A DNA stretch of 64,000 nucleotides. Source: an uncultured Gammaproteobacteria bacterium (lineage in GTDB: Bacteria; Patescibacteriota; Patescibacteriia; Buchananbacterales; UBA6539). A model generated the notes under the pieces. It was not told the origin of the DNA. It searched no databases and worked only from the letters and a program-made list of their open reading frames with translations. The stretch spans positions 16,916-80,915 of the forward strand of contig CAZHUO010000002.1 of NCBI GenBank assembly GCA_964535715.1. Reading direction: 5' to 3'. This document shows, piece by piece, positions 8,159 to 58,874 of the stretch; position 1 is the stretch's first letter; each line of letters starts with the position of its first letter. Position numbers and translations under genes: made by a program.

Positions 8159-8230
8159 TTATTCTAAGCAAGTTAGCATTTTTTCATTAACCTTTTTTCA
8201 AAAATAATGTATAATTAAAATAATGATTTT

Positions 8231-9583: not shown

Positions 9584-9585
9584 GT

Positions 9586-9660: not shown

Positions 9661-9693
9661 AAATCATGAATTTGTGTTATATTAAAATTACAT

Positions 9694-15790: not shown

Positions 15791-15847
15791 TCGGGCTGGG
15801 GAGATTCGAACTCCCGACCTCATCGTCCCGAACGATGCGCGCTAGCC
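15791..15847 (-). pseudogene. tRNA-Pro 3' fragment (D-loop to acceptor, no CCA)
   Basis: 57 of 57 identical to 16149-16205 of the intact tRNA. It diverges on both sides. Confidence 0.8.
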
Positions 15848-16123
15848 CCCGCCAGAGGCGGGTCGGCCTTTGGCGGAAGCTGCTCTAATAATTATATTAC
15901 GAACTTGTCTTCCAAATCCACTTTTGTAAAATTTTTCTCTCATAATAGCATCCTGTTCGCATAAGTATTTTTCAAAATATAATAATATTAGATGACCATT
16001 CTCACGTGTCCATTTGTTCGATTTCTGATTATGTTGTTTTAATCTGTCTTCTGGATTAATTTTTGAGTAACCGACGTATATCTTTCCATTTTTTATACTT
16101 TTTAAAAAATATACATAAAACAT
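15842..16123 (-). CDS. GIY-YIG nuclease family protein
   Basis: MFYVYFLKSIKNGKIYVGYS...RLKQHN...REKFYKS. The stop TAG (15842-15844) lies inside the tRNA fragment. The GC-hairpin-encoded tail is AASAKGRPASGGG. Confidence 0.75.
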   Translation of the reverse strand: MFYVYFLKSIKNGKIYVGYSKINPEDRLKQHNQKSNKWTRENGHLILLYFEKYLCEQDAIMREKFYKSGFGRQVRNIIIRAASAKGRPASGGG

Positions 16124-16145: not shown

Positions 16146-16222
16146 TGGTCGGGCTGGGGAGATTCGAACTCCCGACCTCATCGTCCCGAACGATGCGCGC
16201 TAGCCAGCTGCGCTACAGCCCG
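16146..16222 (-). tRNA. tRNA-Pro (anticodon CGG), CCA encoded
   Basis: CGGGCTG-TA-GCGC-AGCTGGCTA-GCGC-G-CATCG-TTCGGGA-CGATG-AGGTC-GGGAG-TTCGAAT-CTCCC-CAGCCCG-A-CCA folds as a canonical 77-nt cloverleaf. Confidence 0.9.
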
Positions 16223-25559: not shown

Positions 25560-25614
25560 AGAATCTATTGTTGTAACAATTATTAACTTTTTGCGTCATA
25601 ATTATTGTAACCTA

Positions 25615-26178
25615 ATGAAACCTTTGAAATTCAATGAAAAACTGATTTTACTGAAGCTGAAAAAAAAGGATCCGGAAGCATTTTCTCAAATATATGATCT
25701 GTATGTGACTCCGATATATAGGTTCATTTATTTTAAGGTTGCTACTCGTCAGGATGCGGAGGATTTGACATCGGAAGCTTTTTTAAAAGTTTGGCAATAT
25801 ATTGCTGAAACAGAAAATGAAGTTGAAAATTTAAGAGCTTTTCTTTACAAGACCGCACGCAATTTGGTGATAGATTTTTATCGCCGCAATGCCAAAAGAG
25901 ATATTACCCAGGACATTGAAGTATTGAGCTCCGTACAAGATGAAAGGCAGCAAGATCTTTTATCCAGGATTGAAACCAAGATTGATATGGAAAATATGGA
26001 AACGATTTTGCGCAAGATGAAAGATGAATATCGGGAAATTATAATTTTACGCTACATTGAAGAACTTTCAATCAATGAAATTGCAAAAGTTCTGGAACGT
26101 TCAAAAGGTTCAGCCAGAGTTTTGCTTCATCGGGCATTGAAAGTCGCCAGAGAATTGCTTAAAAAAAATGGAAAATAA
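25615..26178 (+). CDS. ECF-type RNA polymerase sigma-70 family factor
   Basis: Region 2 DAEDLTSEAFLKVW and region 4 ELSINEIAKVLERSKGSARVLLHRA. I prefer ATG 25615 over the track's TTG 25591. Confidence 0.85.
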   Translation: MKPLKFNEKLILLKLKKKDPEAFSQIYDLYVTPIYRFIYFKVATRQDAEDLTSEAFLKVWQYIAETENEVENLRAFLYKTARNLVIDFYRRNAKRDITQDIEVLSSVQDERQQDLLSRIETKIDMENMETILRKMKDEYREIIILRYIEELSINEIAKVLERSKGSARVLLHRALKVARELLKKNGK

Positions 26179-27311: not shown

Positions 27312-30300
27312 ATGAAAAAATTATTAACCTACAGCCTGGTAATCACTACCATTGTATGGTCTGTCGGTTTAATCGCAATGCCTTTGGGAGTTGCGGCTGT
27401 TTCTTCTGGAAGCCTTATTAAAAAGGCTGACAGTCCAGCTGTCTACTACTTGGGTGCAGATGGAAAGAGATATGCTTTCCCGCGATCTGAAATCTACATG
27501 ACCTGGTATAGCAACTATTCCGGCGTAGAAGTTGTAAGCGATGAAGTTTTCAACTCTTATGCTTATGGTGGCAGTGTATTCCCGAAACCGGGCGTTAAAT
27601 TGGTTCAATTCGTCGATGGTGAAACACCATGGCACGTTTTGGATCCAAAAGTATATGCAGTTGCCGGTGATGGCGTCTTAAGACACATTACCACTGCTGA
27701 AGCTGCTGTAAGTATATTTGGTGCAAACTGGGAAACAATGATCATCCCGATTATTGAATTGCTTGCTTCTGAATACACTTTCGGCGCAGACATTGTTTCT
27801 GCTTCTGATTTCGACAAAGCTGCAGAAACTGCCGAATCTTCCACAATTAATGAAAATCAGAATTTAGGTGGAGTAGTTTCCGGCGGAACAAGCTTGACCG
27901 TTTCTTTAGCTGCTGACACCCCGGCTTCCGGGATTGTCGTTGCCAATGCCGGCCGAGTTCCATACACCAAAGTTAATCTAACCGCTTCAGCCGATGGTGA
28001 CATCACTATTGACAGTTGGGTAGTTTTAAGAGCCGGTTTAGCCCAGGATGCCGCTTTTTCAAGCGTTGACATCTTAGACGGCGCAACCATGCTTCCGATT
28101 AACGAAACCGGAAAAACCTTCAATTCAACCCACAAAGCTAACTTTACTGAAGATTTTGTTATTCCAGCCGGAACAACCAGATCGATTTATTTAGCCGGTA
28201 ATATGGGTGCCACAGGATCATATGCTGGTGAGACTCCGGCTTTAGCTTTGGAATCAGTTGTCTTAAAGAGCGGTGGTGCAGTTATTGGTTCATTGCCGAT
28301 TACCGGTAATTACCAGACTGTAAACGGTACCATTACTATTGGTACTGCCACTGTCAGCAGAGGTGCATACACCAATGCCACTGACACAACCTTGGAAGTT
28401 GGAAAAACCGCTTACACCTTTTTCTCTTTCAAGATTGAAAATGGTTCTGCTGAAAAAGTATCTTTCAGCAATATAAAAGTTTATCAAAAAGGCAGCGCTT
28501 CTTTGAGCACTGACTTGGATAACTTGGCTTTGTACCAGGATGGCACAAAGGTTGCTGACGGAACAGTTTCCGGCAATTATATCACATTTGTTTTCACCCC
28601 GATTGCTTTTGAAAAGGGTGCAACCAAACAGTATCAGGTAAAAGGCGATATAATTTCCGGCTCTGCCAGGGTTATTGAGCTTGGTATTTACCGCTCAACC
28701 GACCTTTTGGTAAAAGGTGAAACTTACGGTTATAACATTACTCCTACATATAGCGGAACCGGATCTTCTTCAAGCAACCCGGTTTTACAGGACAATGAAT
28801 TTACTGTTTCTCAAGGAACATTTAGAGTCGGTCGATCAAGCACTGTTGGTTCTGAAAACATCGCTGTTGGCGACAATCAGACTTTAGGAGCCTTTGAATT
28901 AGAAGCCAAAGGCGAACCGATTATCGTTTCTGCTTTAACTTTGACTATTGTGTCTTCAACTGTTGGTGCAACCATTCTTGAAGATGCTTTGCAGTCAGTT
29001 AAATTAGTTGATGCTTCCGGAGCTACTGTTGCCGGTCCAACTGATGTTACAAACAACGCTTTAACAGTTGCTTTCACTGATTCATTTACTGTTCCTGTTG
29101 GAGTAAATCATTATAAAGTAGTTGGTAATATTGCTACTAATGGCGGCTGGATCTCAAATAATACTATTTATGCAAAGATTTCCACCCCGGCCACAGCCAT
29201 TACTGCTAAAGGAGAAAATACCGGTTTAAGCATTACCCCAACACCGGCTGCAGACATTACTACTGCCACTCAAACAGTTAAAGCCGCAAATGTAACAGTC
29301 AGCAAGAATTCAACTCCAACCAATAAATCTGTTATTACTAACAGTACCGGAGTTTTAATCGGCAGCTGGTCATTTGATGCAAGTAATTCAGGTGAAGACA
29401 TCAGAATTACCTCAATTGCAATCAAGGCTTCAAGTACCGGCAAGTTGAATAATCTAACCTTAAAAGATGGCTCAACTGCTTTAGATCCGACAAACGATGC
29501 TGTCACTGCAACAACTATTGCTGCTCCGACAACTTCTACCTTTGCTTTATCAGAACCGATTATAATCACTAAAGGCACTTCAAAGACAATTAACCTTTAC
29601 GCTGATATTGGTTCAGATGCATTACAAGGTGAAGTGGATGCTTGGGGCATTACCTCAGGCGCCGCAGTAACTGCTTATGGCGTCACTACTGGTAATTCCG
29701 CCAATGTTTCTGTCACTGCAAGCGATGGTGCATTAGTTACAATTGCAACAGCCGGTACTATTGAATTTCTTGAACATGCAGACTCATTAACACAACGCTT
29801 AGTTGTTGATGGCTCTACTGCCCAGGCCTTGACTGATATGAAAGTTAAAGCTACCAATGAAGATGTAGATATTACTAGTTTAACTATCTATGTCCAAGAT
29901 GGTGGTTTAACCGGTACCGGAGCTGGCAGCTATACCCAGTTATCAAAGGTATATCTTAAATTGGATGGTACAATTGTCGGCAACGTTGATGGTTATAACA
30001 TGGCCGACGCTTCAAAATTAATCAATCTTGAAAGAGGCCAATTAACCATTCCAAAAGGCGATGCTGGTAAAAAATTAAGCATTTTAGGCGATATAGTTGA
30101 AATCGGAACCGGTGAGCCGGGAACTGAAGCTGTTGATATCAAAGTCGGCATTTCTGATCCTGCCACCACTGTTGGTGCAGGTTCTAATGCCAGTGCAGCA
30201 AGGACTTATACAGACGCTTCCGGTTCAGCCGTCATCATTCATGAAGCTGTACCGCAAGTTGCAATCGTTCCGGTAGCAACATTTGGTGGTAGTTTGGCTT

Positions 30301-30881
30301 CCGGGCATCTTCACAGAACCAATATCACAGCAGTCGGCGGTCCTATTGGCATCTGGAGAATGTCTTATGAAGTAACTACCAATACCGCAACTCTTGATGC
30401 TAATACTGCCTATTTGTATTGTGCTTCAGGTTGCAGCGGTATACCAAATGGTACTCAATTATCCGCTACTTCTGATGGTGCCGACGTTGAAGCCCAATCC
30501 CGTGAAAACTTTTTCCTAGAAGTCGATTCCTCTTTTGCTAACAGCAAATCATACGTTCAGATTGCTGAGAACGCAACTGCGGTAATTGACCTTTATGCAA
30601 CTATTTCCGGCCAAAGTACTACTCAAGTTGATAGTGCTGTTGTCAGATTGTTGGGCGACCAAGCTACAACTACAGCTGACAATTTAACCGGTAATGCCGC
30701 TACTACATCAGTCTGGGGTGAAACCGATCAAGTTCATAATAACTTCATCTGGTCATCTCTGTACTCAGACAGCAGTAATTCCGCAGCTGCTTTAGCTGCT
30801 GAACAATGGTTTAATGGTTATTTGGTGAGCGGTATGGGAACAGCAGTCAGTACTACACCTATTAGTATCCCGGAATCATAA
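27312..30881 (+). CDS. Large secreted surface (S-layer-like) protein, Thr/Ser/Ala/Gly-rich with repeated beta-rich modules
   Basis: 1189 aa. Signal peptide MKKLLTYSLVITTIVWSVGLIAMPLGVAA. N-terminal SPAVYYLGADGKRYAFP module. SD-like AAAGGA upstream. About 260-nt leader. Confidence 0.75.
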   Translation: MKKLLTYSLVITTIVWSVGLIAMPLGVAAVSSGSLIKKADSPAVYYLGADGKRYAFPRSEIYMTWYSNYSGVEVVSDEVFNSYAYGGSVFPKPGVKLVQFVDGETPWHVLDPKVYAVAGDGVLRHITTAEAAVSIFGANWETMIIPIIELLASEYTFGADIVSASDFDKAAETAESSTINENQNLGGVVSGGTSLTVSLAADTPASGIVVANAGRVPYTKVNLTASADGDITIDSWVVLRAGLAQDAAFSSVDILDGATMLPINETGKTFNSTHKANFTEDFVIPAGTTRSIYLAGNMGATGSYAGETPALALESVVLKSGGAVIGSLPITGNYQTVNGTITIGTATVSRGAYTNATDTTLEVGKTAYTFFSFKIENGSAEKVSFSNIKVYQKGSASLSTDLDNLALYQDGTKVADGTVSGNYITFVFTPIAFEKGATKQYQVKGDIISGSARVIELGIYRSTDLLVKGETYGYNITPTYSGTGSSSSNPVLQDNEFTVSQGTFRVGRSSTVGSENIAVGDNQTLGAFELEAKGEPIIVSALTLTIVSSTVGATILEDALQSVKLVDASGATVAGPTDVTNNALTVAFTDSFTVPVGVNHYKVVGNIATNGGWISNNTIYAKISTPATAITAKGENTGLSITPTPAADITTATQTVKAANVTVSKNSTPTNKSVITNSTGVLIGSWSFDASNSGEDIRITSIAIKASSTGKLNNLTLKDGSTALDPTNDAVTATTIAAPTTSTFALSEPIIITKGTSKTINLYADIGSDALQGEVDAWGITSGAAVTAYGVTTGNSANVSVTASDGALVTIATAGTIEFLEHADSLTQRLVVDGSTAQALTDMKVKATNEDVDITSLTIYVQDGGLTGTGAGSYTQLSKVYLKLDGTIVGNVDGYNMADASKLINLERGQLTIPKGDAGKKLSILGDIVEIGTGEPGTEAVDIKVGISDPATTVGAGSNASAARTYTDASGSAVIIHEAVPQVAIVPVATFGGSLASGHLHRTNITAVGGPIGIWRMSYEVTTNTATLDANTAYLYCASGCSGIPNGTQLSATSDGADVEAQSRENFFLEVDSSFANSKSYVQIAENATAVIDLYATISGQSTTQVDSAVVRLLGDQATTTADNLTGNAATTSVWGETDQVHNNFIWSSLYSDSSNSAAALAAEQWFNGYLVSGMGTAVSTTPISIPES

Positions 30882-30934: not shown

Positions 30935-30988
30935 AATAAAATCAAGAAGCCCTGCCAAAAGCGGGGCTCTTGATTTTATTGGGTTTTT
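30935..30988 (+). terminator. Strong intrinsic terminator after the surface-protein gene
   Basis: AATAAAATCAAGAAGCCCTGC-caaaa-GCGGGGCTCTTGATTTTATT, followed by gggttttt. Confidence 0.8.
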
Positions 30989-31224: not shown

Positions 31225-31521
31225 ATGCAAGAAAAAGAATACTATACATATATCATGATGAACAGGTGGAACACGGTTTCTTATGTCGGAATAAGCGGCG
31301 ATCTTTCCTTTAGGGTTTGGCAGCACAAAGAAAAGGTAAATGAAGGTTTTACTAAAAAATACAACATCAATAAGTTAGTTTATTATGAAACCTATGATAA
31401 TCCCGATGACGCCATTGTCAGAGAAAAACAGTTGAAACGGTGGAACAGAAAGAAAAAGGTTGATTTAATAAAAAAAGAAAATCCTGAATTTAAGGACTTA
31501 TCGGATGGTTGGGAGGTGTGA
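31225..31521 (+). CDS. GIY-YIG nuclease family protein
   Basis: YYTYIMMNRWNTVSYVGISGDLSFRVWQHK...AIVREKQLKRWNRKKK. Confidence 0.8.
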   Translation: MQEKEYYTYIMMNRWNTVSYVGISGDLSFRVWQHKEKVNEGFTKKYNINKLVYYETYDNPDDAIVREKQLKRWNRKKKVDLIKKENPEFKDLSDGWEV

Positions 31522-31677: not shown

Positions 31678-32421
31678 ATGTCTGAGAAAAAAAGAAAAAT
31701 AATTATATCTTTAGCTGTTGCTTTTGGCATTATTTTAATTATCGCCGGTCTGCTTTTTTATTATCAGAAGCAGGGAATGATAAAAATATTTCCAACCAAA
31801 GAAGAAAAAGAAATTGCCAAAATTTTGGAAATTGACAGAGAAAAGCTTCGTCCGGCTCAGGATTTATCGCAAGAAGATTTTGAAAAGATAATTAAAGAGC
31901 TTGAAAAAGAGAAAGAAAATGTTTTGTCAGATCCAAAAAGCGCAACCGCCTGGCATGAATTTGCAATCCTTAAAAATTTTTTAAACGATCACCAAGGCGC
32001 TGTTGAAGCCTGGGAAATGTCTTTTGAGATTCAGCCAAATAATTTTAGAACGGCGTTGAATTTGGCAAATACTTGTCAGTATTTTGTAAAAGATTATCCA
32101 AAAGCCGAGTACTATTACAGAAAAGTTTTAGAATTACAGCCCCAATTAACCTCGGCATTTGACGGACTAATGGATCTTTATCGCTATAATTATAAAGAAA
32201 AGCAAAGTGAATACGAGCCATTGGTTTTGCAGGGAATTGAAAATGATCAGGCTAATGCCGCGGCTTATTATTCGAGCCTGATTGGGTTTTTTATGTCAGA
32301 AGAGACATCAAATGAAGAAAAGGCCGTCAAGTATTGGGAAAAGCTTAATAGTATTGATTCAGTCAAAGCTGAAGCGGCTTTTGATTCTTATCCAAAACTT
32401 AAAGAACTAGTAGAAAAATAG
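31678..32421 (+). CDS. Membrane-anchored TPR repeat protein
   Basis: N-terminal TM segment. TPR-like AWHEFAILKNFLNDHQGAVEAWEMSFEIQPNN and AEYYYRKVLELQP. Confidence 0.65.
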   Translation: MSEKKRKIIISLAVAFGIILIIAGLLFYYQKQGMIKIFPTKEEKEIAKILEIDREKLRPAQDLSQEDFEKIIKELEKEKENVLSDPKSATAWHEFAILKNFLNDHQGAVEAWEMSFEIQPNNFRTALNLANTCQYFVKDYPKAEYYYRKVLELQPQLTSAFDGLMDLYRYNYKEKQSEYEPLVLQGIENDQANAAAYYSSLIGFFMSEETSNEEKAVKYWEKLNSIDSVKAEAAFDSYPKLKELVEK

Positions 32422-32422
32422 T

Positions 32423-34759
32423 ATGGGTTATAAAAATATTTTAGAAAAAATCAGCATTGGCGCGATTTTTTTTGGAATCGGCGTCACTTTATTTGTTCCG
32501 TTAATTACCAATAGTAATTTTGTTTTTCCTTTTATATTTCCAAAAGTAATTATTTTTCGCGTTGCAGTTTCCTTGATCTTTTTATTTTATTTACTTTTGG
32601 TTTATCTTGATAAAAAATATCTGCCCAGATTGAATTTAATTTTTTGGTTGATCTTTGGTTTTATCTTTATTGCTTTTGTTTCATCATTTTTCGGCCTTGA
32701 TTTTTATTTAAGTTTTTGGGGTGATATTGAAAGAAGTGAAGGTCTAATTTTATGGCTTCATTTGATGGCTTATTTCATAGTCTTATCCGGGGTTTTAAAT
32801 AATGAGAAGATTTGGCTGATTTTTTTTGATGTGTCATTATTTTCCAGTCTCCTTCTTTGTCTTTTTGCTTTAGCCCAGATTTTTAAGGTTGAATCGGTAT
32901 TAAATACAACCGGTGAAAGAGTCTCATCAACTATCGGTAATCCGGCATTTTTAGCGGTATATTTGATGTTTCAGCTGGCATTTTGCGCTTATTTGTTTAT
33001 AAAAAGGCCGATTTATTTAAAGTTTTATTATGTCGCATTGTTTTTATTTTTTTCCTATATCATTATTGAAACCGAGACTAGGGGAGCAGCAGTTGGATTA
33101 GCTGTTGCCTTTTTAGTTTCCGGCGGCTTATTTTTGCTGACAACAAAAAATAAAATAGTCAGGGTAGTATCCTTAATTTTAATTTCTTTTGTTATTTTAA
33201 GCAGCACCTTGATATATATTGGCCGAGATACCGATTTTATTAAAAATGATCCGACTTTGCGCCGCCTAGCTTCCATATCATTAAACAGCCCGACGGTTAA
33301 AACCCGTTTAGTCGCCTGGCAAGCTGCATGGAATGGCTGGCAGGATAGTTTTATTTTGGGTTATGGATTGGAAAATTTTAATAAAATTTTTGACAAAAAT
33401 TTTCCGCCTTCAATTTATGAAGAAGAAGGCTCGCAAGTTTGGTTTGACCGGGCGCATAATTTTATTTTTGACCGAGGTTTAACAAGCGGTATTTTGGGGC
33501 TTTCTCTGTATTTGGCTTTTATTTTATTGCCATCAGTAATATTTTTAAAAAAGATCTTTTTGAAGCCTGATGAGGAGGATGAAAAAGATGAGGCAGATTA
33601 TTATTTGTACATAATCTTTATCAGCTTTACCGTCGGTTTTTTAATTCAAAATTTATTTGTCTTTGAAACAGTCACAACTTATATTATTTTATTTTTCTGC
33701 TGGGCTTTTATTTCTTCTAAAATTGATTTGTTCAGATTAAAATTGGAAATAAACAATAAGATATGGTTTTCAGCATTTGTTTTATTTTTGATTTTATTAA
33801 CCCCTTTAATTTGGTTTTCTGATATTAAGCCGGCTTTGGCAAATGCCGAAGTGGCCAAGGCTTTGCATTTAGAAAAAAATTTAAGCGACCCAAAAGCCAA
33901 GTATGATTTTTTTGATGTGGTTGATGAATTTAAAAAAGGGCTAAAGATTCAAACATATGGCCTGCCGGAATACAGAATTCAATTTATTGAGTTTTTATAT
34001 AATCAGCTGGCGAATGTTGGATCGGTATCAGAAAAAGTCAAGCCCGAACTTTTATATGGCCAGGAAATTATTAATGATCATCTATTGCAAAGGCCCAACG
34101 ATGCCAAAAGCTATCTTTTGGCCATGAGATTTTATAATTACACTTTTAATTCTTTACCAGGCCAAGAAATTGAACGTTTGGACACTTCACTTGTTTTTTT
34201 CCCAAAGCTTAAAGAATTAAGCCCGACTCGGCCGCATGTTTATCAGGAAGCCGGATTTTCTGAGCTTTATAAATTTAGAATATATCAACAAAATAATGAT
34301 TTAGATTTAGCTGAAAAGTCCAAAGAAAAGGCTGAAGAATATTTTAAGCAAGCAGTAAAATTAAATCCGAAGGTTGTTGAGTCGCATATTAATTTAATAA
34401 TGCTTTATTTAAATTCCGGACAAGATGAAAAAATTCAGGAGGTCATAAATAATATGGAAGAAAACGAGGCTGATTTTAGAGATGCTGATTATCTCAGTCG
34501 TTTAATCAGTCTTTCCGTTGGCAATAAAAATTATAAATGGTCAGTTTGGTTTGCCGAAGAATTCATTAAAATAGATCAGAAAAATCTCGGCGCATGGAAT
34601 AATTTGGCCATATCTTATGCATATCTTGGCCAAGATGAAAAAGCAATAGAAATTGCAGAAAAAATGAAAGAAATTTTTTCCGGAACTTATGGTTTGAATA
34701 ACGACATTAATTTGTTTATTCAATCGATTAAAGCCGGAAAATACAAGGAAAAAGATTGA
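32423..34759 (+). CDS. O-antigen ligase-like (Wzy_C) polytopic membrane protein with C-terminal TPR domain
   Basis: More than 10 TM segments. ETETRGAAVGLAV loop typical of O-antigen ligase family. C-terminal TPR-like repeats. Confidence 0.7.
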   Translation: MGYKNILEKISIGAIFFGIGVTLFVPLITNSNFVFPFIFPKVIIFRVAVSLIFLFYLLLVYLDKKYLPRLNLIFWLIFGFIFIAFVSSFFGLDFYLSFWGDIERSEGLILWLHLMAYFIVLSGVLNNEKIWLIFFDVSLFSSLLLCLFALAQIFKVESVLNTTGERVSSTIGNPAFLAVYLMFQLAFCAYLFIKRPIYLKFYYVALFLFFSYIIIETETRGAAVGLAVAFLVSGGLFLLTTKNKIVRVVSLILISFVILSSTLIYIGRDTDFIKNDPTLRRLASISLNSPTVKTRLVAWQAAWNGWQDSFILGYGLENFNKIFDKNFPPSIYEEEGSQVWFDRAHNFIFDRGLTSGILGLSLYLAFILLPSVIFLKKIFLKPDEEDEKDEADYYLYIIFISFTVGFLIQNLFVFETVTTYIILFFCWAFISSKIDLFRLKLEINNKIWFSAFVLFLILLTPLIWFSDIKPALANAEVAKALHLEKNLSDPKAKYDFFDVVDEFKKGLKIQTYGLPEYRIQFIEFLYNQLANVGSVSEKVKPELLYGQEIINDHLLQRPNDAKSYLLAMRFYNYTFNSLPGQEIERLDTSLVFFPKLKELSPTRPHVYQEAGFSELYKFRIYQQNNDLDLAEKSKEKAEEYFKQAVKLNPKVVESHINLIMLYLNSGQDEKIQEVINNMEENEADFRDADYLSRLISLSVGNKNYKWSVWFAEEFIKIDQKNLGAWNNLAISYAYLGQDEKAIEIAEKMKEIFSGTYGLNNDINLFIQSIKAGKYKEKD

Positions 34760-34761
34760 TT

Positions 34762-37617
34762 ATGTTTTTTAAATTATATTATCGCATAATAAAATCAAAA
34801 AGGATAAAAATTTTTTCAATTTTTTTGGCCATTTTGATTTTAGCTGGTTTGTTTTTTTTGTCTTTTGCAAAAACCAGCTTTGTATCAGTTGAAAGCCGAG
34901 CTGAATTTTTGCGCAGCCATCCGACTATACAGAAGCTTCTGCCGCTTTATTGGAAAATCAGGAAAATTGGTGATATTACATATTTTCCGTATGTTTTTAA
35001 AAAAAATGAATTGCCGACTTATCGACTTGTAATAAAGCCGGAAAACTTAAAGATTTTAAATGATAATCTGCCTGATGAATTCATGTCGGTAATCTATGGC
35101 GATAAAACCTATGTGCCGGCTAAATTTTATTATCAGGAAAAAGAATATGATGTAAAAGTCCGCTATCGCGGTGATACTGCTATTCATTGGAATGCCCCGA
35201 AAAAATCTTATCATGTTAAATTTGACAAAGACCAGCCGTTTAACGGTTTTAGGGAGCTTGCTTTTGTTATTGCGGATGATCGAAAATTTGTTTTAGAATA
35301 TTTTAACAATTATCGCGCAGATAAGTTTGGCTTATTTCACCCGCCAAGCTTTTTTGCTAATTTAAATTTAAATGGCAATAAACAAGGCTTGTATTTTGTG
35401 ATCGAGGGCTGGTCGCAGGAAATGCTGACTAAATGGGAAGTACCCGATGAAGCCAATCTTTATGGCGATGATAATTTTGGCGTCGTGTGGGACAGCCCTT
35501 TTGGCTGGCGCTTGGTGACAAAAGACAGCCAGGATCGGTTTGCCTTTGATAATTTTTCGGCCATGAACTATTTATTGGATCTATTCAGTAATTCAACCGA
35601 TGAGGAATTTTTTTCTCAAATATTCAATTTGCTGGATGAAGAAAATTTTTATAATTGGCAGATTCAAAATCAACTTATTAATTCGTCGCATCAAAACTTG
35701 GGGAATATCCAATTTTATTTTGATGATTCAAGAGGAAAATTTTATATTATTCCCTGGGATGTTATGGGTGATTCGGTCGATACCGATAATTTCACTAACT
35801 ACGGCCCGATTGCCAGGCGGATTTTTACCAATCCGGAATTTTTTCACAAAAAAAATCTAATGCTTTATCAGTATGTATCTGATGAAAAAAATCTTGAAGA
35901 TGATTTAAAGTTTTATGACCAATCCTATAATAGTATTAAGCCGGCTTTATATAAAGATCGGGAAAAAATTTATACAAACGCTTGGGCTGACAGTATTTAC
36001 AAAGAAAACCGGGAAAAAATTATTACGGTTTTTAATCGGCTAAAAGAACATTTAAAATCAGGTTCTATTTTTGCCGAAATTGCCGTTAATGACGATGATA
36101 ATATAAAAATTAATTCAGTAAATTTATTAGCTGAAATCAATCTGACCGCTAAAAGCGTGCCGGAATTTTATTTAATCTCGGTTAAGCCGGAGTTAATTGA
36201 TAATTTGGCAGAAGCTGACTATCAATTATATTATGATTCTAATTCTAATAATGAATTTGATTTAAAAGACCAGAAGCTAGAAGATCCAAAAAAGGTTATG
36301 ATTTATAGCAGGCAAGCAATCAATCCAGTAAACAGCAGGCTTGAGCCGCAATCGACAAAATATAAGTTTTTTCTAGTCAGCAATAATGTTTCGCCGCAGG
36401 AATTTGCAGGCAAGGTAAAGTCTTTTGAGCTTGAATTGGAAAATGCAATCACCGCCGAAATTCTTGAAAAAGAAAATATTGACCTGAAAATAGTCGGTCG
36501 AAATGTTTTTAAATATTTTTCAGCAATAAATGATATAAGCGGTTTTATAAAAAAATACCCGATTTTTAAAGTCGATGAATCAAGCAAGGAAATATTGCTT
36601 GATTCAGGCTTTTATCAAATCAATCAGACAGTTATTGTTCCAAAAGGCTTTACCTTAAAAATTATGGCGGGCGCTAATTTAATTTTCGGCCCAAAAACTT
36701 CATTAGTCAGCTATAGTCCGGTTTTGGCTTTGGGCACAAAAGAAAAGCCAATTATAATTTCCGGGCAATCTGGCAGCCAACCTTGGGGTGTTTTTGCAGT
36801 TTTAGACCAGGGTAAACAAGAAAGCAAATTTAGCTACGTCCAATTTTTAGGCGGAAAAGATGATTATATCAACGGCGCATATTTTTCCGGCCAGCTTTCG
36901 GTTTATTTTTCCGATGTGCTAATTGATAATTGCCAATTTTCCGATGCCAATGCGGATGATTCTTTAAACGTTAAAAAATCAAAAGTTATAATTTCCAACA
37001 GCCTGTTTTTCAACAACAGCGCTGATGCGATAGATTTTGATTTTATTAAAGACGGTGAAATAAACAATAGCCGATTTTTCAATAATGGCAACGATGGAAT
37101 TGATATAAGCGGTTCGGAGGTTTTGCTTAAAGGTAATTATATTGAGAAATCCGGAGATAAGTGCATCAGTATCGGTGAATATTCGCGAGGTTCAAAAATT
37201 TATAATAATGTTTTAAACGGCTGTAATATCGGCATTGAAGTAAAAGACGGTTCTAATCCTTTTATTATTAATAATGTGATAGTAAATAATAATATTGGTA
37301 TAAATGCCTACGTTAAAAAACCGGTCTTTTCCGGAGATCTGATTACGGTTTATAACAGCATCATATGGAATAATAAGGAGCCGATAAAAACCGCAGACAA
37401 CATGTCAATTGAAATTTATTCAAGTGATCTTCCCGTCTACTCTGATAAAAATAATAATTTTGATATTGAGCCAATTTTTAGCAATCCGGATGAAAAAGAC
37501 TTTACAATAAATAAGGATAATGTTAAAATGTCATTTATTGATAAAGGCAATTCAGCTATTTTAGAAAGTGTTTTGAATATTAAAATAAAAAAAGCTCCCA
37601 TTGGTTTAATCAGATAA
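34762..37617 (+). CDS. CotH kinase family protein fused to a right-handed beta-helix domain
   Basis: CotH pattern VKVRYRGDTAIHWNAPKKSYHVKF...LNLNGNKQGLYFVIEG. C-terminal NNSADAIDF / NNGNDGIDISGS beta-helix repeats. ATG 34762 preferred over TTG 34756. Confidence 0.75.
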   Translation: MFFKLYYRIIKSKRIKIFSIFLAILILAGLFFLSFAKTSFVSVESRAEFLRSHPTIQKLLPLYWKIRKIGDITYFPYVFKKNELPTYRLVIKPENLKILNDNLPDEFMSVIYGDKTYVPAKFYYQEKEYDVKVRYRGDTAIHWNAPKKSYHVKFDKDQPFNGFRELAFVIADDRKFVLEYFNNYRADKFGLFHPPSFFANLNLNGNKQGLYFVIEGWSQEMLTKWEVPDEANLYGDDNFGVVWDSPFGWRLVTKDSQDRFAFDNFSAMNYLLDLFSNSTDEEFFSQIFNLLDEENFYNWQIQNQLINSSHQNLGNIQFYFDDSRGKFYIIPWDVMGDSVDTDNFTNYGPIARRIFTNPEFFHKKNLMLYQYVSDEKNLEDDLKFYDQSYNSIKPALYKDREKIYTNAWADSIYKENREKIITVFNRLKEHLKSGSIFAEIAVNDDDNIKINSVNLLAEINLTAKSVPEFYLISVKPELIDNLAEADYQLYYDSNSNNEFDLKDQKLEDPKKVMIYSRQAINPVNSRLEPQSTKYKFFLVSNNVSPQEFAGKVKSFELELENAITAEILEKENIDLKIVGRNVFKYFSAINDISGFIKKYPIFKVDESSKEILLDSGFYQINQTVIVPKGFTLKIMAGANLIFGPKTSLVSYSPVLALGTKEKPIIISGQSGSQPWGVFAVLDQGKQESKFSYVQFLGGKDDYINGAYFSGQLSVYFSDVLIDNCQFSDANADDSLNVKKSKVIISNSLFFNNSADAIDFDFIKDGEINNSRFFNNGNDGIDISGSEVLLKGNYIEKSGDKCISIGEYSRGSKIYNNVLNGCNIGIEVKDGSNPFIINNVIVNNNIGINAYVKKPVFSGDLITVYNSIIWNNKEPIKTADNMSIEIYSSDLPVYSDKNNNFDIEPIFSNPDEKDFTINKDNVKMSFIDKGNSAILESVLNIKIKKAPIGLIR

Positions 37618-37620
37618 TTT

Positions 37621-38376
37621 ATGCCGAAATTGAATTTACATTTTCAGAGATTTGAATTTAAATATTATCTGCCGAAAAATAAAGCAGATAAAATAATTCC
37701 GGCTTTTTTGGCTCATATGGAATGGGATCCCTATATTCAGGGAACCGGCCGGGATTTTTATGAAGTAAACAGCCTTTATTTTGACAGTTCTAATTTTGGT
37801 TGTTTTTGGGACAAGGAAAGCGGAATTGCTGACCGAAAAAAATTGAGACTCAGGTTTTATGGTCAGGAAATTAATGATAAAACGCCTGTATTTGTCGAAA
37901 TAAAGAGAAAAAAAGATGCTTTGGTAATTAAGGATAGAATCAAACTGGAAGCGGCTGATTGTTTTAATAATGTTTTTGATGAAAAATTACTTGGATTGTT
38001 AAGTAAAGATCAGGAAAATAATTTTTTGCAGGAGTTAGTTTGGTTTAAAAAAAGAAATGTAATGAGGCCAAAGCTTTTTGTATCTTATAATCGCAAAGCA
38101 TTAATCAGCAAAATGGATAAAAGATTCAGGGTGACATTTGATTATAATATTAAAACCAAACTTCTTAATGATTTTAAGGATTACAGCTGCAACAATTTAA
38201 AAGAAGTATATCCTAACGGTTTGATTTTGGAGCTTAAATATAATAATATTTTGCCGGCTTGGTTTCAGCAAATCATCCAAAAATATCAGCTTCAGAGAAT
38301 AGCTTTTTCCAAATACTGCAATTCATTGAGAAAAGTTGTTCCGAACCTTGATGATAATAATTATTCAATAAATTAA
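37621..38376 (+). CDS. VTC (polyphosphate polymerase-type) domain protein
   Basis: RFEFKYYL, SLYFDS, KLRLRFY, VFVEIKRK. Confidence 0.7.
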   Translation: MPKLNLHFQRFEFKYYLPKNKADKIIPAFLAHMEWDPYIQGTGRDFYEVNSLYFDSSNFGCFWDKESGIADRKKLRLRFYGQEINDKTPVFVEIKRKKDALVIKDRIKLEAADCFNNVFDEKLLGLLSKDQENNFLQELVWFKKRNVMRPKLFVSYNRKALISKMDKRFRVTFDYNIKTKLLNDFKDYSCNNLKEVYPNGLILELKYNNILPAWFQQIIQKYQLQRIAFSKYCNSLRKVVPNLDDNNYSIN

Positions 38377-38389
38377 ATTAATAAAAATT

Positions 38390-39076
38390 ATGCCGCAAAA
38401 TTTGTTTAACATCACGCCGATTGGCGAGCCTTTAACTTTATTGACAATAATAATCACTATTTTGTTAGCATTTATATTGTCTTTGGCTGTTGCTTGGGTT
38501 TATAAAATTACCCACAAAGGCCTTTCGTATTCACAATCATTTACTTTTACTTTAATTTTAATCGGCTTATTGCTGTCGGTTATTATGATGGTAATCGGCA
38601 ACAGCTTAGCGATTGCATTCGGAGCATTCGGCGCATTTTCTTTGATTCGTTTTCGCACAGCAATAAAAGATACAAAAGACGTGGCCTTCATTTTACTTGC
38701 TGTGACAATTGGCTTGGCAATGGGGACAAGGAATTTCTTAATTGCCATTATAATTACTGTTTTTACCTTGTTGGTTATTTATATATTGACAAAGATCAAT
38801 TTTGGCTCGATAAAAAAGTATGATTATATTTTGAATTTTTCCGCCAATAGTAATATTTTTTCTAATGAAAAAATGCGCAAGCTTTTTAGCGAATTTTTTA
38901 AATATGATAATTTGTTAAATGTTGTTTCCAAAGAAAATGGCAGGATTCTAGATTATACTTTTAATATTAAATTCATTAAATCCGAAGAATTGGAAGCGTT
39001 TATCAAGAAATTCAGTCAGCTTGAGGGAGTTACCAATATTGACATTATCAGTGCAAAAAACGACATCGAATATTAA
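38390..39076 (+). CDS. DUF4956 domain membrane protein
   Basis: AFILSLAVAWVYKITHKGLSYSQSF...GAFSLIRFRTAIKDTKDVAFILLAVTIGLAMG. Confidence 0.65.
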   Translation: MPQNLFNITPIGEPLTLLTIIITILLAFILSLAVAWVYKITHKGLSYSQSFTFTLILIGLLLSVIMMVIGNSLAIAFGAFGAFSLIRFRTAIKDTKDVAFILLAVTIGLAMGTRNFLIAIIITVFTLLVIYILTKINFGSIKKYDYILNFSANSNIFSNEKMRKLFSEFFKYDNLLNVVSKENGRILDYTFNIKFIKSEELEAFIKKFSQLEGVTNIDIISAKNDIEY

Positions 39077-39083
39077 ATTCATT

Positions 39084-39116
39084 AAAAAAACACTTTGTGA
39101 AAGCAAAGTGTTTTTA
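39084..39116. terminator. Bidirectional intrinsic terminator
   Basis: aaaaaa-ACACTTTG-tgaaag-CAAAGTGT-tttt, between convergent genes. Confidence 0.75.
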
Positions 39117-39142: not shown

Positions 39143-40264
39143 TTATTCGCTATAAATTTTTTTTGTTCTTTCAACCATTTTTTCTAAGCTAAAATAATTT
39201 TCTACATCAATTTTTGCTTGCCTGCCAATTTTTACTGCTAAAACATTATCTTTTAGCAGGCGAGTGATTTTTGTTGCCAAATCAGACGGGCTGAATGGTT
39301 CAACCAGCAAGCCGTTGGTTTCGTTTTTTAACATTTCCGGAATTCCGCCTACTTTTGTGGCAACAATTGGCAAGCCGGCGCGCATCGCTTCCAAAATGGC
39401 ATATGGAAAGCCTTCTTTTATTGAAGGCAAAACGAAAATGTCAAAGGCGTTAAGGTATTTTTTTGCATCCAGTACTTTTGACAAAAAAAAGTTATTTTGC
39501 AAATTAAGACCTCTAATTTTCAATTTTAATTCCTTTTCCAGCTGGCCAAAGCCGATTAATCTGAAAATTATATCAGGAAATTGTTTTGTAATTTCTTTGG
39601 CTGCAGAAATTAAATATGTTAAGCCTTTAGTTTCATAAAAGTTTGCAATAGTTCCAATAACAATTTTATCTGGTGGTAAATCAAGTTTTTGCCTGGCAAT
39701 TACTTTATTTAGAAAATCTATCGGTTCAATGCCGTTATTTATCGTAATAAGCTTATTTTCAGGGGCAATTTTATTTTTTATTCCGGCTTGCCGGTCAAAT
39801 TCCGAAACGCAAATCAGCTTGTCTTTGTATCTGGCGGAAAATTTTTCGGCAAAAGTGTAAATATTTTTTTGCAAGTTGCTCATTGGTTCGTTGAAAACAA
39901 AGCCGTGGACCGTATAGATAATTTTTTTTACTTTAGCATGCTTTCCGGCTATTGCTCCAATTACTCCGGCTTTGCTGCTGTTGAGGTGTAAAACATCGGG
40001 TTTTAATTCATTAATCAATTTTTTTATTTCAAAATATGCCTTTATGTCTTCAAGCGGACTGATTTCTCGAATTAAATGTTTTAATTTATAATTTTTTATG
40101 CCATGTTTGTTCAGTTTACTATAGAGTTCCTCATTTCCGCCGGCCGCTACCATTACTTCATATTTTTCTTGTGGCAAATTTGTCGCTAAATCAAAAATAT
40201 AGTGCTGAGCTCCGCCCCATTCCGATTGAGTAACAATATATAAAATTTTGCTGATTTTAGCCAT
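39143..40264 (-). CDS. Glycosyltransferase family 4
   Basis: SIKEGFPYAILEAMRAGLPIVATKVGGIPEML. Confidence 0.85.
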   Translation of the reverse strand: MAKISKILYIVTQSEWGGAQHYIFDLATNLPQEKYEVMVAAGGNEELYSKLNKHGIKNYKLKHLIREISPLEDIKAYFEIKKLINELKPDVLHLNSSKAGVIGAIAGKHAKVKKIIYTVHGFVFNEPMSNLQKNIYTFAEKFSARYKDKLICVSEFDRQAGIKNKIAPENKLITINNGIEPIDFLNKVIARQKLDLPPDKIVIGTIANFYETKGLTYLISAAKEITKQFPDIIFRLIGFGQLEKELKLKIRGLNLQNNFFLSKVLDAKKYLNAFDIFVLPSIKEGFPYAILEAMRAGLPIVATKVGGIPEMLKNETNGLLVEPFSPSDLATKITRLLKDNVLAVKIGRQAKIDVENYFSLEKMVERTKKIYSE

Positions 40265-56713: not shown

Positions 56714-57085
56714 ATGAATCCAATAATTTTTTTGCTTATAGCTGACGTTTTAATGGCGGTTTGCGGACAGTTGCTTTTAAAAAAAGGAATGACAATATTA
56801 GGGCCGATTGATTTTAACTTAAATAATATTTGGGTTTTAATAATCAGCGCCTTAAAAAATATTTATATTTGGATTGCAGTGATTTGCTATGTGCTGGGCT
56901 TGGTTTTTTGGCTTTTTATTCTGTCAAAAGTCAAACTTTCAGTGGCCTATCCGATAACAGCATTAGTATACGTTTTAGTCGTATTCAGCTCATGGCTTTT
57001 ATTAAAAGAAGAAATAGGTGTATATCAAATTGTTGGAACAGGCTTAATAGTTTTTGGCTTGTTGTTCATGTTTAAATTTTTATAG
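56714..57085 (+). CDS. EamA/SMR-like small membrane transporter (ArnE/ArnF-like flippase subunit)
   Basis: 123 aa, four TM segments, next to a sugar aminotransferase and a large membrane protein. Confidence 0.55.
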   Translation: MNPIIFLLIADVLMAVCGQLLLKKGMTILGPIDFNLNNIWVLIISALKNIYIWIAVICYVLGLVFWLFILSKVKLSVAYPITALVYVLVVFSSWLLLKEEIGVYQIVGTGLIVFGLLFMFKFL

Positions 57086-57086
57086 A

Positions 57087-58874
57087 ATGAACCAAAAAAT
57101 AAAAATTTTTTTTACACGCCATTATCTAGCAATTTTATTTTCTATTTTAGTCGGCTTGATTTATATTTGGCCGCATGTCTGGTTTATCGCATCAAATAGC
57201 GATATTTATCAAGGAATACCCTTAATGCAGATTGATAATGAGGATTTTTACTTAGCCCGAATGCAAGAAATTTTAGACGGTCATCCATCATTAGGGTCGC
57301 CGGCTTTTTTTGAATATAAAGATCAGCCGCCAATGTCTCCGCCAACAGTTGAGATTTTATATGCATTGCCGACTATCTTTTTAGGTATTCCGTTGATAAT
57401 TACGCTTACCGCAAGTAAATTTATTTTACCGTTAGTTCTTTTTTTACTTATTTATTCGTTTATTTTTTCATTGCTTGGCCGTGAAAATAATTTAGCAAAT
57501 AAAATCAGCTCTATTGCTGGCGCAGCCCTTATTTTATTGGGTTATGATTTAATTGATTATCGTTATATTTTTAATTTATTATCAGGGTCTATAGAGCCGA
57601 GCAGATGGCTGATTTGGACAAGACCAGTAAATCCTATAACCGGCGCTATTTTCCTATTTTCTTTTTTATTATTTCTTAAAGCTGCGGTTTGTAATACTAA
57701 AAAATCACTAATACCAGCTATTGGGGCGGGATTTTTTTTGGCCTTGATGTTTTCCAGTTATTTTTTTAGCTGGGGAATTGCACTTTCGATATTAGCTATG
57801 ATGGGATTCTTTTATATTTTACGGCGTAATTATTATGTTGTTAAACGCATTATATTAATATCAATCCTTGGAATATTTTTATCCCTTCCTTACTGGTATT
57901 CATCATGGCAGGCAAAACAAAATATTTGGTACGATGAGGCTTTATTAAAAAGCGGTTTGTTTTATACCCACTACCCATTATTTAATAAAGTATTGATTGT
58001 ATCCTTTCTAATCTACCTCTTATTTTTACTTTTTAAGTTTTTTAATAATTCTCGTCGTTTCAATTTTGAAGACAATGATTATTTTATTTTGGCTCTTTTG
58101 ACCGGTGGCTTATTTGCCTTTAACCAGCAGGTTATTACCGGAATGACTGTTTGGCCATTTCATTTTGTCCAATATACTATTCCTTTTTCGATTATTGCCG
58201 GAATTATAGTATTACATAATATCACATATAAACACTGCAGGGTTGTTTGGCTAATGGCTATAGGTATTATCATTTTGGCTTCATCGTCTTACGGAATATA
58301 TATTCAATTTGCTACATATTCTAATTATTTGGAATATAATAAGTCGGTTCAAGACTATGCGGCATTATTTAAATGGATTAATAGCCAGGAAAAAGACTGC
58401 GTTGTTTTAGTTGCCGGTGATCGCAGGCAATTTAAAGAGCTGAGTGGCTTGGTTCTTGCTTTTACTCATTGCAATCAATATAGTAATGAATGGGCATATA
58501 CCTTAATGCCTTCGGAAAGAGTTTATCATAACTATTTAGTTAATTTGAGAATGAAAGGAATATCAGCTGATGGGTTTGAAGAATATTTACAAAAAAATTT
58601 CTCAGAAGCAAGATCTTTTTTGTTTTCTAATTGGGCGGGATTATACGGAGTTTCTACATTTCCTGACTTTACAGATGAAAAATTACAAGAAAGAATCAAA
58701 GGGTTGCCTGGTGATTATCATGAGTTTCTAAAAAAAGATTTTAAAACAGAACTAAATAAATATCGTTTGGATTTTATTATATCTTTTGGGCCCTTGTCGG
58801 AGCAGGCTATGAGTCAATTAAGTGATATAAAATTTCTTGAAAAAATAAATAATTTGTTCATTTATGAATATTAA
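57087..58874 (+). CDS. Large polytopic membrane protein, possible GT-C-type glycosyltransferase
   Basis: More than 10 TM segments then a soluble C-terminal domain. The function call rests on context only. Start at ATG 57087. Confidence 0.4.
   Translation: MNQKIKIFFTRHYLAILFSILVGLIYIWPHVWFIASNSDIYQGIPLMQIDNEDFYLARMQEILDGHPSLGSPAFFEYKDQPPMSPPTVEILYALPTIFLGIPLIITLTASKFILPLVLFLLIYSFIFSLLGRENNLANKISSIAGAALILLGYDLIDYRYIFNLLSGSIEPSRWLIWTRPVNPITGAIFLFSFLLFLKAAVCNTKKSLIPAIGAGFFLALMFSSYFFSWGIALSILAMMGFFYILRRNYYVVKRIILISILGIFLSLPYWYSSWQAKQNIWYDEALLKSGLFYTHYPLFNKVLIVSFLIYLLFLLFKFFNNSRRFNFEDNDYFILALLTGGLFAFNQQVITGMTVWPFHFVQYTIPFSIIAGIIVLHNITYKHCRVVWLMAIGIIILASSSYGIYIQFATYSNYLEYNKSVQDYAALFKWINSQEKDCVVLVAGDRRQFKELSGLVLAFTHCNQYSNEWAYTLMPSERVYHNYLVNLRMKGISADGFEEYLQKNFSEARSFLFSNWAGLYGVSTFPDFTDEKLQERIKGLPGDYHEFLKKDFKTELNKYRLDFIISFGPLSEQAMSQLSDIKFLEKINNLFIYEY

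Follow-up and report, generated by a model that had tools for sequence, protein, structure and literature searches.

Gene Organization of the Locus

The present analysis concerns a 64,000-nucleotide stretch of contig CAZHUO010000002.1 (assembly GCA_964535715.1), referred to below as the window, and in particular a block of five open reading frames (ORFs) at 31678–39076. Three of these genes, coding for a CotH-family protein fused to a beta-helix, a VTC-domain protein, and a DUF4956 membrane protein, form the trio on which this work is focused. A preliminary description of the block, prepared from the nucleotide sequence, had presented it as five co-directional genes with minimal spacing. All five ORFs are found on the + strand, at exactly the coordinates given in that description. 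The block comprises the following features.

31678–32421, + strand: TPR anchor, 247 amino acids
32423–34759, + strand: Wzy_C-TPR protein, 778 amino acids
34756–37617, + strand: CotH-beta-helix protein, 953 amino acids from a TTG start (public gene calls begin at the ATG at 34762 and give 951 amino acids); membrane-anchored CotH-like domain, beta-sandwich, and right-handed beta-helix
37621–38376, + strand: VTC-domain (triphosphate-tunnel) protein, stand-alone and soluble, 251 amino acids; candidate polyphosphate polymerase
38390–39076, + strand: DUF4956 protein, 228 amino acids; five helices followed by an ACT/MgtC-C-like domain (residues 146–221)
39086–39115, no strand assigned: hairpin with a 13-bp stem, AAAAACACTTTGTG-AAAG-CAAAGTGTTTTT, between the DUF4956 stop codon and a convergent GT4 gene

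The intergenic gaps across the block are 1, −4, 3, and 13 nt, the second becoming +2 nt when the ATG start of the CotH gene is used. The hairpin at 39086–39115 is likely a bidirectional terminator that marks the 3′ end of a transcription unit, and a second terminator-like hairpin is located at 30948–30968, 3′ of an upstream ORF of 1189 amino acids. On account of the tight spacing and of the hairpins on both flanks, the five genes look like a single transcription unit, in which a small GIY-YIG ORF at 31225–31521 is possibly also included. The Pfam scan of the block proteins returned Wzy_C, CotH, Beta_helix, VTC, and DUF4956, each above its curated cut-off, and the first ORF consists of a transmembrane (TM) helix and TPRs, such that both the gene arrangement and all five domain assignments proposed earlier are borne out. 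Identical 9-kb contigs are present in two Logan runs. The Rfam scan of the window yielded tRNAs only, far upstream of the block. A role in anti-phage defence has also been considered and was rejected, since PADLOC gave 0 matches for the five block proteins and two upstream ORFs.

Conservation of the CotH/VTC/DUF4956 Trio

Related loci were collected from one genome per GTDB species using a profile built from 52 VTC homologues. The search resulted in 64 loci, nearly all of them from the candidate phyla radiation (CPR), plus two Spirochaetales metagenome-assembled genomes (MAGs). The closest homologues of the three core proteins belong to Patescibacteria/CPR MAGs (Buchanan-, Komeili-, Kuenen-, Doudna-, and Falkowbacteria). 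The neighbors of the VTC gene were counted with hidden Markov models (HMMs) built iteratively from the window proteins. The DUF4956 gene is located directly 3′ of the VTC gene on the same strand in 51/57 loci (53/57 when overlapping stop-to-stop ORFs are counted) and at most 5 kb from it in all 57. A CotH gene is present within ±10 kb of VTC in 33 of the 36 loci with enough flank, and in 22 of these 36 it lies directly 5′ of VTC on the same strand. The beta-helix, scored by single-pass phmmer with residues 701–900 of the CotH-beta-helix protein, is present in 17 of the 22. The near-universal VTC–DUF4956 association, the high frequency of CotH, and the 64 independent species-level loci place the co-occurrence beyond chance, in agreement with the preliminary description, which had called the trio a recurrent neighborhood.

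The same description had treated the five-gene block as a possible module, with the trio physically linked to an O-antigen-ligase-like enzyme. A Wzy_C-like ORF occurs near VTC in about five loci only (L013, L020, L025, L035, and L036, the gene order of L035 being that of the window), and in the HMM scan of the VTC loci no homologue of the TPR anchor was found beyond the copies of this contig itself. This leaves CotH/VTC/DUF4956 as the conserved unit, the two TPR-bearing genes being locus-specific. The five-gene block was accordingly rejected as a conserved module; the link to the ligase-like enzyme stands as an adjacency in the window but does not extend to most other loci.

The trio itself is conserved over many Patescibacteria lineages and is found as well in one DPANN archaeon and at least one unrelated higher-GC lineage. 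The archaeal case is a Diapherotrites MAG (L071, GCA_030649345.1), in which CotH-beta-helix, VTC, and DUF4956 genes appear in the window order inside a glycan cluster; this suggests that the genes have passed between CPR bacteria and DPANN archaea, or else that the contig was mis-binned. In locus L072, also outside the CPR, the order of DUF4956 and VTC is swapped, and locus L075 places the trio in a 55%-GC lineage unrelated to the CPR loci. A glycan context is also common: homologues of the window glycan genes are present in 40 of the 46 loci that span at least 12 kb, and a glycosyltransferase in 32 of the 46. The Pfam-annotated neighbors of related loci include family 4 glycosyltransferases (GT4s), epimerases, DegT, Wzx flippases, radical SAM enzymes, and carbamoyltransferases.

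It should be mentioned here that loci 36–68% identical to the module and with CPR-like neighbors are found in many MAG records titled "uncultured Gammaproteobacteria bacterium" (L008, L009, L012, L015, L021, L023, L024, L026, L027, L037, L041, and L051). These titles look like taxonomic mislabels.

The VTC Protein

The VTC protein matches the Pfam family VTC (PF09359) with 151.9 bits against a cut-off of 23 (E 2.7e-44), residues 10–238 being aligned to positions 2–233 of the 235 profile positions. It has no SPX domain, no TM segment, no further Pfam domain, and no CYTH match, and a TM stretch was predicted in none of 120 VTC homologues. The family is large, with 13,400 cluster representatives at E ≤ 1e-3 and 6,915 at E ≤ 1e-10 in a 50%-identity library, and among the matches listed almost all are stand-alone proteins of ~240–270 amino acids. 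When the family profile was compared with the PDB, the best match was 3g3q, the Vtc4 catalytic domain from yeast (E 1.2e-12), which together with the Pfam score sustains the earlier statement that the protein carries the polyphosphate polymerase catalytic fold. The search with the single sequence gave a weak Vtc2 match only.

The cryogenic electron microscopy study of VTC identified K200, R264, R266, K281, R361, K458, S457, Y359, and the Mn-binding E426 as critical (bioRxiv 10.1101/2023.01.27.525886). According to the same study, mutating the triphosphate-coordinating residues lowers polyphosphate, and K458 sets active Vtc4 apart from the inactive Vtc2/3, which have S-I/L in place of the S-K pair. 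In the window protein, K14, R76, R78, K95, Y156, and R158 align to Vtc4 K200, R264, R266, K281, Y359, and R361, respectively, and all of them are invariant in the 52 homologues save K95, which is kept in at least 90%. The C-terminal half was left unaligned to Vtc4 by HMMER; it contains an invariant E204-x-K206 and an invariant S230-K231 pair in Vtc4-like order, and E204, S230, and K231 would match Vtc4 E426, S457, and K458 as order-consistent counterparts.

The CotH-Beta-Helix Protein

The domain arrangement of the CotH-beta-helix protein, as obtained from the sequence and from an AlphaFold2 (AF2) model with a predicted local distance difference test (pLDDT) score of 89.3, is given below.

34798–34878, + strand: signal-anchor helix, residues ~15–41, preceded by 6 Lys/Arg and followed by 2 within 15 residues
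residues 45–81, + strand: helical linker in the AF2 model
35017–36057, + strand: CotH kinase-like domain, residues ~88–434
35689–35706, + strand: CotH catalytic loop SSHQNLGN, H312–N317, from column analysis
35758–35760, + strand: CotH metal-binding Asp, D335, in an IPWD motif
36067–36498, + strand: all-beta sandwich linker domain, residues ~438–581, from the AF2 secondary structure
36568–37425, + strand: right-handed parallel beta-helix (CASH/pectin-lyase-like), residues ~605–890, from Pfam, AF2, and Foldseek

The CotH family (PF08757) is matched at residues 135–433 with 67.9 bits (cut-off 23.8). In the Foldseek comparison, the CotH part of the model superimposes on Bacillus cereus CotH (5jd9/5jda) with E 2e-15 and TM-scores of 0.79–0.82, and the CotH family profile matches 5jd9 in the PDB with E 1.4e-34. 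The PDB search with the single sequence gave no match, such that the family profile was required. Beta_helix is matched at residues 746–889 with 49.8 bits (cut-off 25.9), and Beta_helix and NosD together cover residues 719–889. By Foldseek the beta-helix is similar to the GH87 glucanase, the alginate epimerase AlgG, PL6 lyases, NosD, RbmB, and phage depolymerases. It contains the conserved acidic repeat motifs DAIDFDF, NGNDGIDISGS, and SGDKCISIGE.

Topology prediction, proposed as a check in the preliminary description, gave one N-terminal anchor in 28 of 30 CotH homologues, usually richer in Lys/Arg before the helix than after it. Other members of the family have signal peptides or type IX secretion system (T9SS) tails, and a streptococcal CotH homologue has been reported in a secretome (bioRxiv 10.1101/2024.04.20.589940). 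It is thus most likely that the bulk of the CotH-beta-helix protein lies outside the cell, in the N-in/C-out orientation predicted from the sequence.

The D228Q and D251A variants of Bacillus subtilis CotH are inactive (PMC7821199). D335 of the window protein aligns to B. cereus D247, the equivalent of B. subtilis D251, and an Asp is found at this position in 87 of about 92 sequences. The residue corresponding to D228 behaves differently along a graded series of loops: divergent CPR/DPANN relatives have H-[FY]-D-x-x-H-N, in which the His is accompanied by the canonical Asp, HQxxDN is found in many close relatives, and HQxxGN completes the series. His312 is kept in 81/90 family members, and the Spirochaetales CotH has the canonical NWD without the His. 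N317 and the YRG and KKS motifs are conserved in the family, as are the basic residues H144, R176, R187, K328, and K404, which have no Bacillus counterpart. The site thus looks selected but modified. Since the D228 equivalent is replaced by His and the loop has no acidic residue, calling the protein a kinase is an extrapolation. The atypical kinase fold of the preliminary description is borne out (TM-score 0.8) and the metal-binding Asp is present, but with the catalytic Asp missing the kinase activity cannot be assumed.

The DUF4956 Membrane Protein

The DUF4956 protein matches PF16316 with 47.3 bits against a cut-off of 30.6, and five TM helices are predicted (residues 17–41, 49–69, 71–90, 95–112, and 116–135 of the model), consistent with its earlier assignment as a DUF4956 membrane protein. 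The C-terminal domain is modeled as an ACT-like beta-alpha-beta-beta-alpha-beta fold. There are 2865 homologues at E ≤ 0.001, with PF16316 carried by those among the matches listed; some homologues bear the Pfam MgtC domain, and the JGI label is YhiD-like. The MgtC/SapB family model of NCBIfam (PRK09977) scores 24.4 bits for the window protein, far below the family threshold of 214. PDB searches with the single sequence and with the family profile found no solved relative.

Two loops, THKGLSYSQ (residues 41–49) and RFRTAIKDTKD (87–97), are invariant in the family. Positive-inside counting gives an N-out/C-in orientation, which would place both loops in the cytoplasm beside the ACT-like domain. 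Such an arrangement would fit a docking site for the VTC protein or for a polyanion.

Domain Fusions

Two kinds of fusion protein were encountered among the relatives. In the first, a CYTH domain (PF01928) replaces or follows the beta-helix of CotH with no TM segment in between (P0144, P0146, and P0148), and in locus L018 such a CotH::CYTH gene (7794–9974) lies directly 5′ of a VTC–DUF4956 pair. With this architecture, the CotH side of the membrane is predicted to have a triphosphate-tunnel domain in addition to that of the VTC protein. In the second, a membrane-embedded synthase-type family 2 glycosyltransferase (GT2) is fused to a complete VTC domain (P0382, 718 amino acids). On the 55%-GC metagenomic contig mentioned above, the region L075:1265–8560 (also L076) is an operon that encodes, in this order, a DUF2334 deacetylase-like protein, this GT2::VTC protein, DUF4956, and a CotH with a signal peptide and the additional domains LTD, ILEI, and CHB_HEX_C_1/Fn3_assoc. 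The two fusions support a tie between the module and both polysaccharide synthesis and tri/polyphosphate chemistry.

Proposed Function and Alternative Readings

We propose that the trio is a polyphosphate-linked surface-glycan modification module, a reading that we put forward tentatively and to which we assign somewhat less than an even chance, its mechanism being an inference. In general terms, the module probably adds phosphate chemistry to a cell-surface glycan, and the "envelope phosphorylation or polyphosphate module" of the preliminary description is, as such, still the best reading.

In the proposed mechanism, the soluble VTC protein would be an active triphosphate-tunnel enzyme that, in the manner of yeast Vtc4, produces inorganic polyphosphate from nucleoside triphosphate (NTP) on the cytoplasmic side of the membrane. 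The MgtC-like DUF4956 protein, with its five TM helices, would hold VTC at the membrane, with the basic loops and the ACT-like domain involved in docking or regulation, and might also pass the polyphosphate chain across the membrane. On the outside, the beta-helix of the CotH-like protein would hold the surface glycan, while the kinase-like domain would move phosphate or a phosphate chain onto the glycan or onto a glycoprotein. The phosphoryl donor for this step could be exported polyphosphate, because ATP is unavailable outside the cell. In the window, the Wzy_C-TPR and TPR proteins would act at the outer face, ligating or polymerizing the lipid-linked glycan of the downstream cluster and scaffolding the modifying enzyme. 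The more specific scenario, in which a VTC-type synthase native to bacteria and archaea and its MgtC-like partner deliver polyphosphate to the outer face of the membrane and the His-site CotH uses it in place of ATP to place phosphate or polyphosphate on surface glycans, is unlikely in our estimation.

A number of observations weigh against the proposed module. The TM domain of DUF4956 resembles neither the Vtc1/3/4 channel nor any transporter of solved structure, the ACT-like domain alone giving matches, and the conserved basic residues are located in the loops and not within the membrane; polyphosphate export by DUF4956 is thus pure inference. The MgtC relatives, moreover, are known as regulators working via protein–protein contacts and not as channels. 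For the VTC protein, HMMER gave no alignment for the equivalents of E426, S457, and K458, only the Y-x-R / R-x-T-x-D strand being aligned. The canonical catalytic Asp of CotH (B. subtilis D228) is absent, with H312 located five positions before N317 and no Asp or Glu in the loop SSHQNLGN, so the window protein may not be a phosphotransferase at all. CotH proteins are ATP-dependent where they have been studied, and none is known to draw on polyphosphate. The association with CotH is also not strict: VTC–DUF4956 pairs with no CotH within 10 kb occur in L015, L031, L038, and L039, and CotH genes with no VTC occur in L073, where there is no trio beside a T9SS-tailed CotH, and in L074. CotH is therefore a frequent but not obligate partner of VTC–DUF4956. 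Finally, the trio had been described earlier as having no established function, and our search of the literature likewise brought up no study addressing the function of DUF4956, of any trio CotH, or of any VTC-domain protein from bacteria.

We have also considered several alternative readings. Polyphosphate made by a VTC protein tethered by DUF4956 might stay inside the cell, where it would buffer phosphate or energy locally or regulate glycan synthesis; the ACT-like domain would then sense a metabolite, and the CotH-beta-helix protein would work independently on glycan or surface proteins outside. The resemblance of DUF4956 to MgtC/YhiD, a family with regulatory contacts to membrane proteins and links to ATP and inorganic phosphate homeostasis, points in this direction, as do the lack of a detectable channel-like fold in DUF4956, the GT2::VTC fusion, which sets VTC beside a cytoplasmic catalytic domain, and the existence of some VTC–DUF4956 pairs without CotH. 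The preprint on Streptococcus intermedius also suggests that polyphosphate may stay cytoplasmic (bioRxiv 10.1101/2024.04.20.589940). Such a scheme would, however, account neither for an extracytoplasmic CotH being the third partner that recurs most constantly (directly adjacent in 22/36 loci) nor for the gain by CotH of a CYTH domain on its own side of the membrane, and we regard it as having an appreciable, if minor, chance of being correct. It is distinctly unlikely, on the other hand, that the CotH domain of this sub-lineage is a pseudokinase or binding module and that the beta-helix is a catalytic glycan lyase, epimerase, or hydrolase that trims a surface polymer, VTC and DUF4956 having an unrelated or regulatory role. 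The lack of an acidic residue in the window loop, where B. subtilis D228 is essential, is in line with this possibility, and so are the strongly conserved acidic motifs of the beta-helix and its likeness to AlgG, PL6 lyases, GH87, and RbmB. However, D335, Asn317, YRG, KKS, and the near-invariant His312 are conserved under selection, and close relatives retain either the canonical H-[FY]-D-x-x-H-N or, in HQxxDN, an Asp beside the Asn, a pattern that suggests a modified but still active site. A beta-helix is, moreover, missing from many of the trio CotH proteins.

The chemistry assigned to the VTC protein can be questioned in a similar way, as the triphosphate tunnel metalloenzyme (TTM)/CYTH superfamily spans several chemistries, and the protein might be a tripolyphosphatase, an NTP phosphohydrolase, or a cyclase rather than a polymerase. 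The literature search gave no assay of a bacterial VTC-domain protein, and the C-terminal catalytic residues are not aligned directly to Vtc4. Nevertheless, the Pfam VTC model is matched end-to-end at 152 bits with no match to CYTH, the catalytic domain of Vtc4 ranks first among the PDB matches, and the invariant residues are compatible with the full Vtc4 set, with an S-K pair as the order-consistent counterpart where the inactive Vtc2/3 have S-I/L, all of which makes a non-polymerase improbable. The last reading considered is that the five genes are merely adjacent in a mixed envelope locus and have no functional coupling. This would agree with the TPR anchor and the Wzy_C-TPR protein not being conserved with the trio. 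For the trio itself it is contradicted by a co-conservation that spans phyla and domains, the gene order changing occasionally, and by the two independent domain fusions, and we consider it very improbable.

Relation to Known Systems

The closest known setting of the trio is the accessory block of Gram-positive Pel operons, in which cotH, a polyphosphate-polymerase gene, and DUF4956 (/DUF4832) occur in Streptococcus, Clostridia, and Bifidobacterium (Whitfield et al. 2020, PMC7112168). The corresponding proteins of S. intermedius, SIR_1594–1592, have been described bioinformatically (bioRxiv 10.1101/2024.04.20.589940), and the trio is also found in NELoc-2 of Clostridium perfringens (PMC11677781). 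The two settings share a contiguous arrangement of these three families in association with an exopolysaccharide (EPS) locus, with CotH predicted to be secreted, VTC cytoplasmic, and DUF4956 composed of 4–5 TM helices and an ACT-like domain. They differ in the host, which is here a CPR bacterium, and in the pathway, the window locus looking like a lipid-linked (Wzy_C/ABC/GT4-rich) glycan pathway. No PelD/E/G or DUF4832 match was found among the ORFs of 27312–63496, and the GT4 at 39143–40264 scores 60.7 against the PelF model, the cut-off of which is 100. The window CotH also has a beta-sandwich and a beta-helix instead of FN3, together with a His-type catalytic loop. The known part is thus the trio neighborhood of Gram-positive Pel operons, and the new part is the beta-helix-fused, His-loop trio of CPR/DPANN genomes in a non-Pel glycan cluster.

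With the yeast VTC complex (Vtc4/Vtc3/Vtc1; 3g3q, 7ytj, and 8i6v) the module shares a homologous tunnel domain in which the triphosphate residues are kept, and a genetically coupled membrane partner. In the bacterial case, however, the tunnel domain is a separate soluble protein with neither SPX nor the attached 3-TM channel domain, and the partner is the MgtC-like DUF4956 instead of the 3-TM DUF202-type subunits, no likeness to the channel fold being found. DUF4956 itself has the architecture and the C-terminal ACT-like fold of MgtC/SapB/YhiD; its constant pairing with a VTC-domain gene is not a feature of MgtC.

The Bacillus CotH spore-coat Ser/Thr kinase (5jd9/5jda) has the same fold as the window protein, with the metal-binding Asp, the Asn, and the YRG and KKS motifs. 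The window protein differs in that it has His312 and extra conserved basic residues and no catalytic Asp, and in that it is membrane-anchored, predicted to be extracytoplasmic, and fused to a beta-helix, in a non-sporulating organism. An analogy for the possible role of the CotH-beta-helix protein can further be drawn to the Fam20/POMK glycan kinases of the secretory pathway, which also have an atypical kinase fold, a non-cytosolic location, and glycan or secreted substrates. These kinases use lumenal ATP. CotH has been described as distantly related to Fam20C (PMC7821199).

Polyphosphate synthesis in prokaryotes is credited to PPK1/PPK2, and VTC is regarded as eukaryotic (bioRxiv 10.1101/2023.01.27.525886). 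The VTC family described here is large and stand-alone, has its aligned catalytic residues intact, and is locked to DUF4956 and usually to a surface CotH in the glycan loci examined. If the proposed function is correct, it would represent a third prokaryotic route to polyphosphate, would provide a function for DUF4956 and for the CotH proteins not involved in sporulation, and would imply a phosphate-based modification of exopolysaccharides that is relevant to the Pel biofilms of streptococci and clostridia. It would also have a bearing on the cell surface at which CPR/DPANN episymbionts meet their hosts. Should the polyphosphate-donor scenario for CotH hold, it would explain how an enzyme with a kinase fold can operate where ATP is lacking, and it would define a new pathway of glycan modification, Pel-type biofilm polysaccharides included. 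The GT2::VTC and CotH::CYTH fusions and the His-type CotH loop offer concrete targets for mutation.

TPR-Bearing Proteins and Neighboring Genes

The TPR anchor has one N-terminal TM helix (~residues 8–28) after a KKRK sequence, followed by TPR repeats. TPR_17 is above its Pfam cut-off and other TPR models are just under theirs; there are weak partial matches to PrsT and BcsC, which are TPR scaffolds of EPS systems. In the second protein, Wzy_C (PF04932) is matched at residues 206–364 with 68.4 bits (cut-off 31.7, E 7.6e-19). The hydropathy profile displays about 12–13 hydrophobic segments and an 81-residue loop (270–350) within the Wzy_C match, and C-terminal TPRs are located at ~629–750. Like WaaL/Wzy/PglL and the TPR scaffolds of EPS systems (PelB, BcsC, and AlgK type), these proteins feature Wzy_C in a polytopic protein and weak partial TPR matches. 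They are distinguished from the classical WaaL by the Wzy_C::TPR fusion, by the CPR envelope, and by not being conserved with the trio.

The preliminary description had also placed a very large glycan cluster downstream of the block. Such a cluster exists, extending from 39143 to at least 63496, but its first gene (39143–40264, GT4) lies on the minus strand and is convergent with the block. The cluster contains seven GT4 genes and one GT2 gene, a TviB-like UDP-sugar dehydrogenase, a B12-radical SAM enzyme, several methyltransferases, an AsnB-like amidotransferase, a DegT aminotransferase, an ABC exporter, a Capsule_synth-like protein, and a polysaccharide deacetylase. It also includes, at 57054–58874 and right after a short EamA-like ORF (56714–57085), a 606-amino-acid protein with ~9 hydrophobic segments and no Pfam match, which may be an unrecognized GT-C-type glycosyltransferase or polymerase of the cluster.

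Upstream of the block are unrelated and envelope genes, coding for pyruvate:ferredoxin oxidoreductase (PFOR), an L,D-transpeptidase, UppS, a PilB-type ATPase, HtrA, and an extracytoplasmic function (ECF) sigma factor. The 1189-amino-acid ORF mentioned above (27312–30881) has a signal-peptide-like N-terminus, is rich in Thr/Ala/Ser/Gly, and has no Pfam, NCBIfam, or PADLOC match; it may encode a surface or S-layer-type protein. On its 5′ side lie the ECF sigma factor (25591–26178) and a 294-amino-acid ORF without matches, possibly an anti-sigma factor. In NELoc-2 of C. perfringens, sigma/anti-sigma genes are likewise paired with CotH/VTC (PMC11677781).

The small GIY-YIG ORF at 31225–31521 has a stand-alone counterpart in a Buchananbacteria genome (L003:2252–2500), the two being 82–98 amino acids long and both located within a glycan cluster. 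Their position relative to the trio differs, and the ORF may be a mobile endonuclease-like element. At 15791–15861 on the minus strand there is a weak Rfam tRNA match (30.6 bits, gathering score 29) with no ARAGORN call, ~300 nt from a tRNA-Pro(CGG) at 16146–16222. The first 8 kb of the window encode a radical SAM/SPASM protein (531–2018), a second radical SAM protein (5823–6845), and a polysaccharide deacetylase (6847–7674), and the GC content of the first 2 kb is 47%, compared with about 33%.

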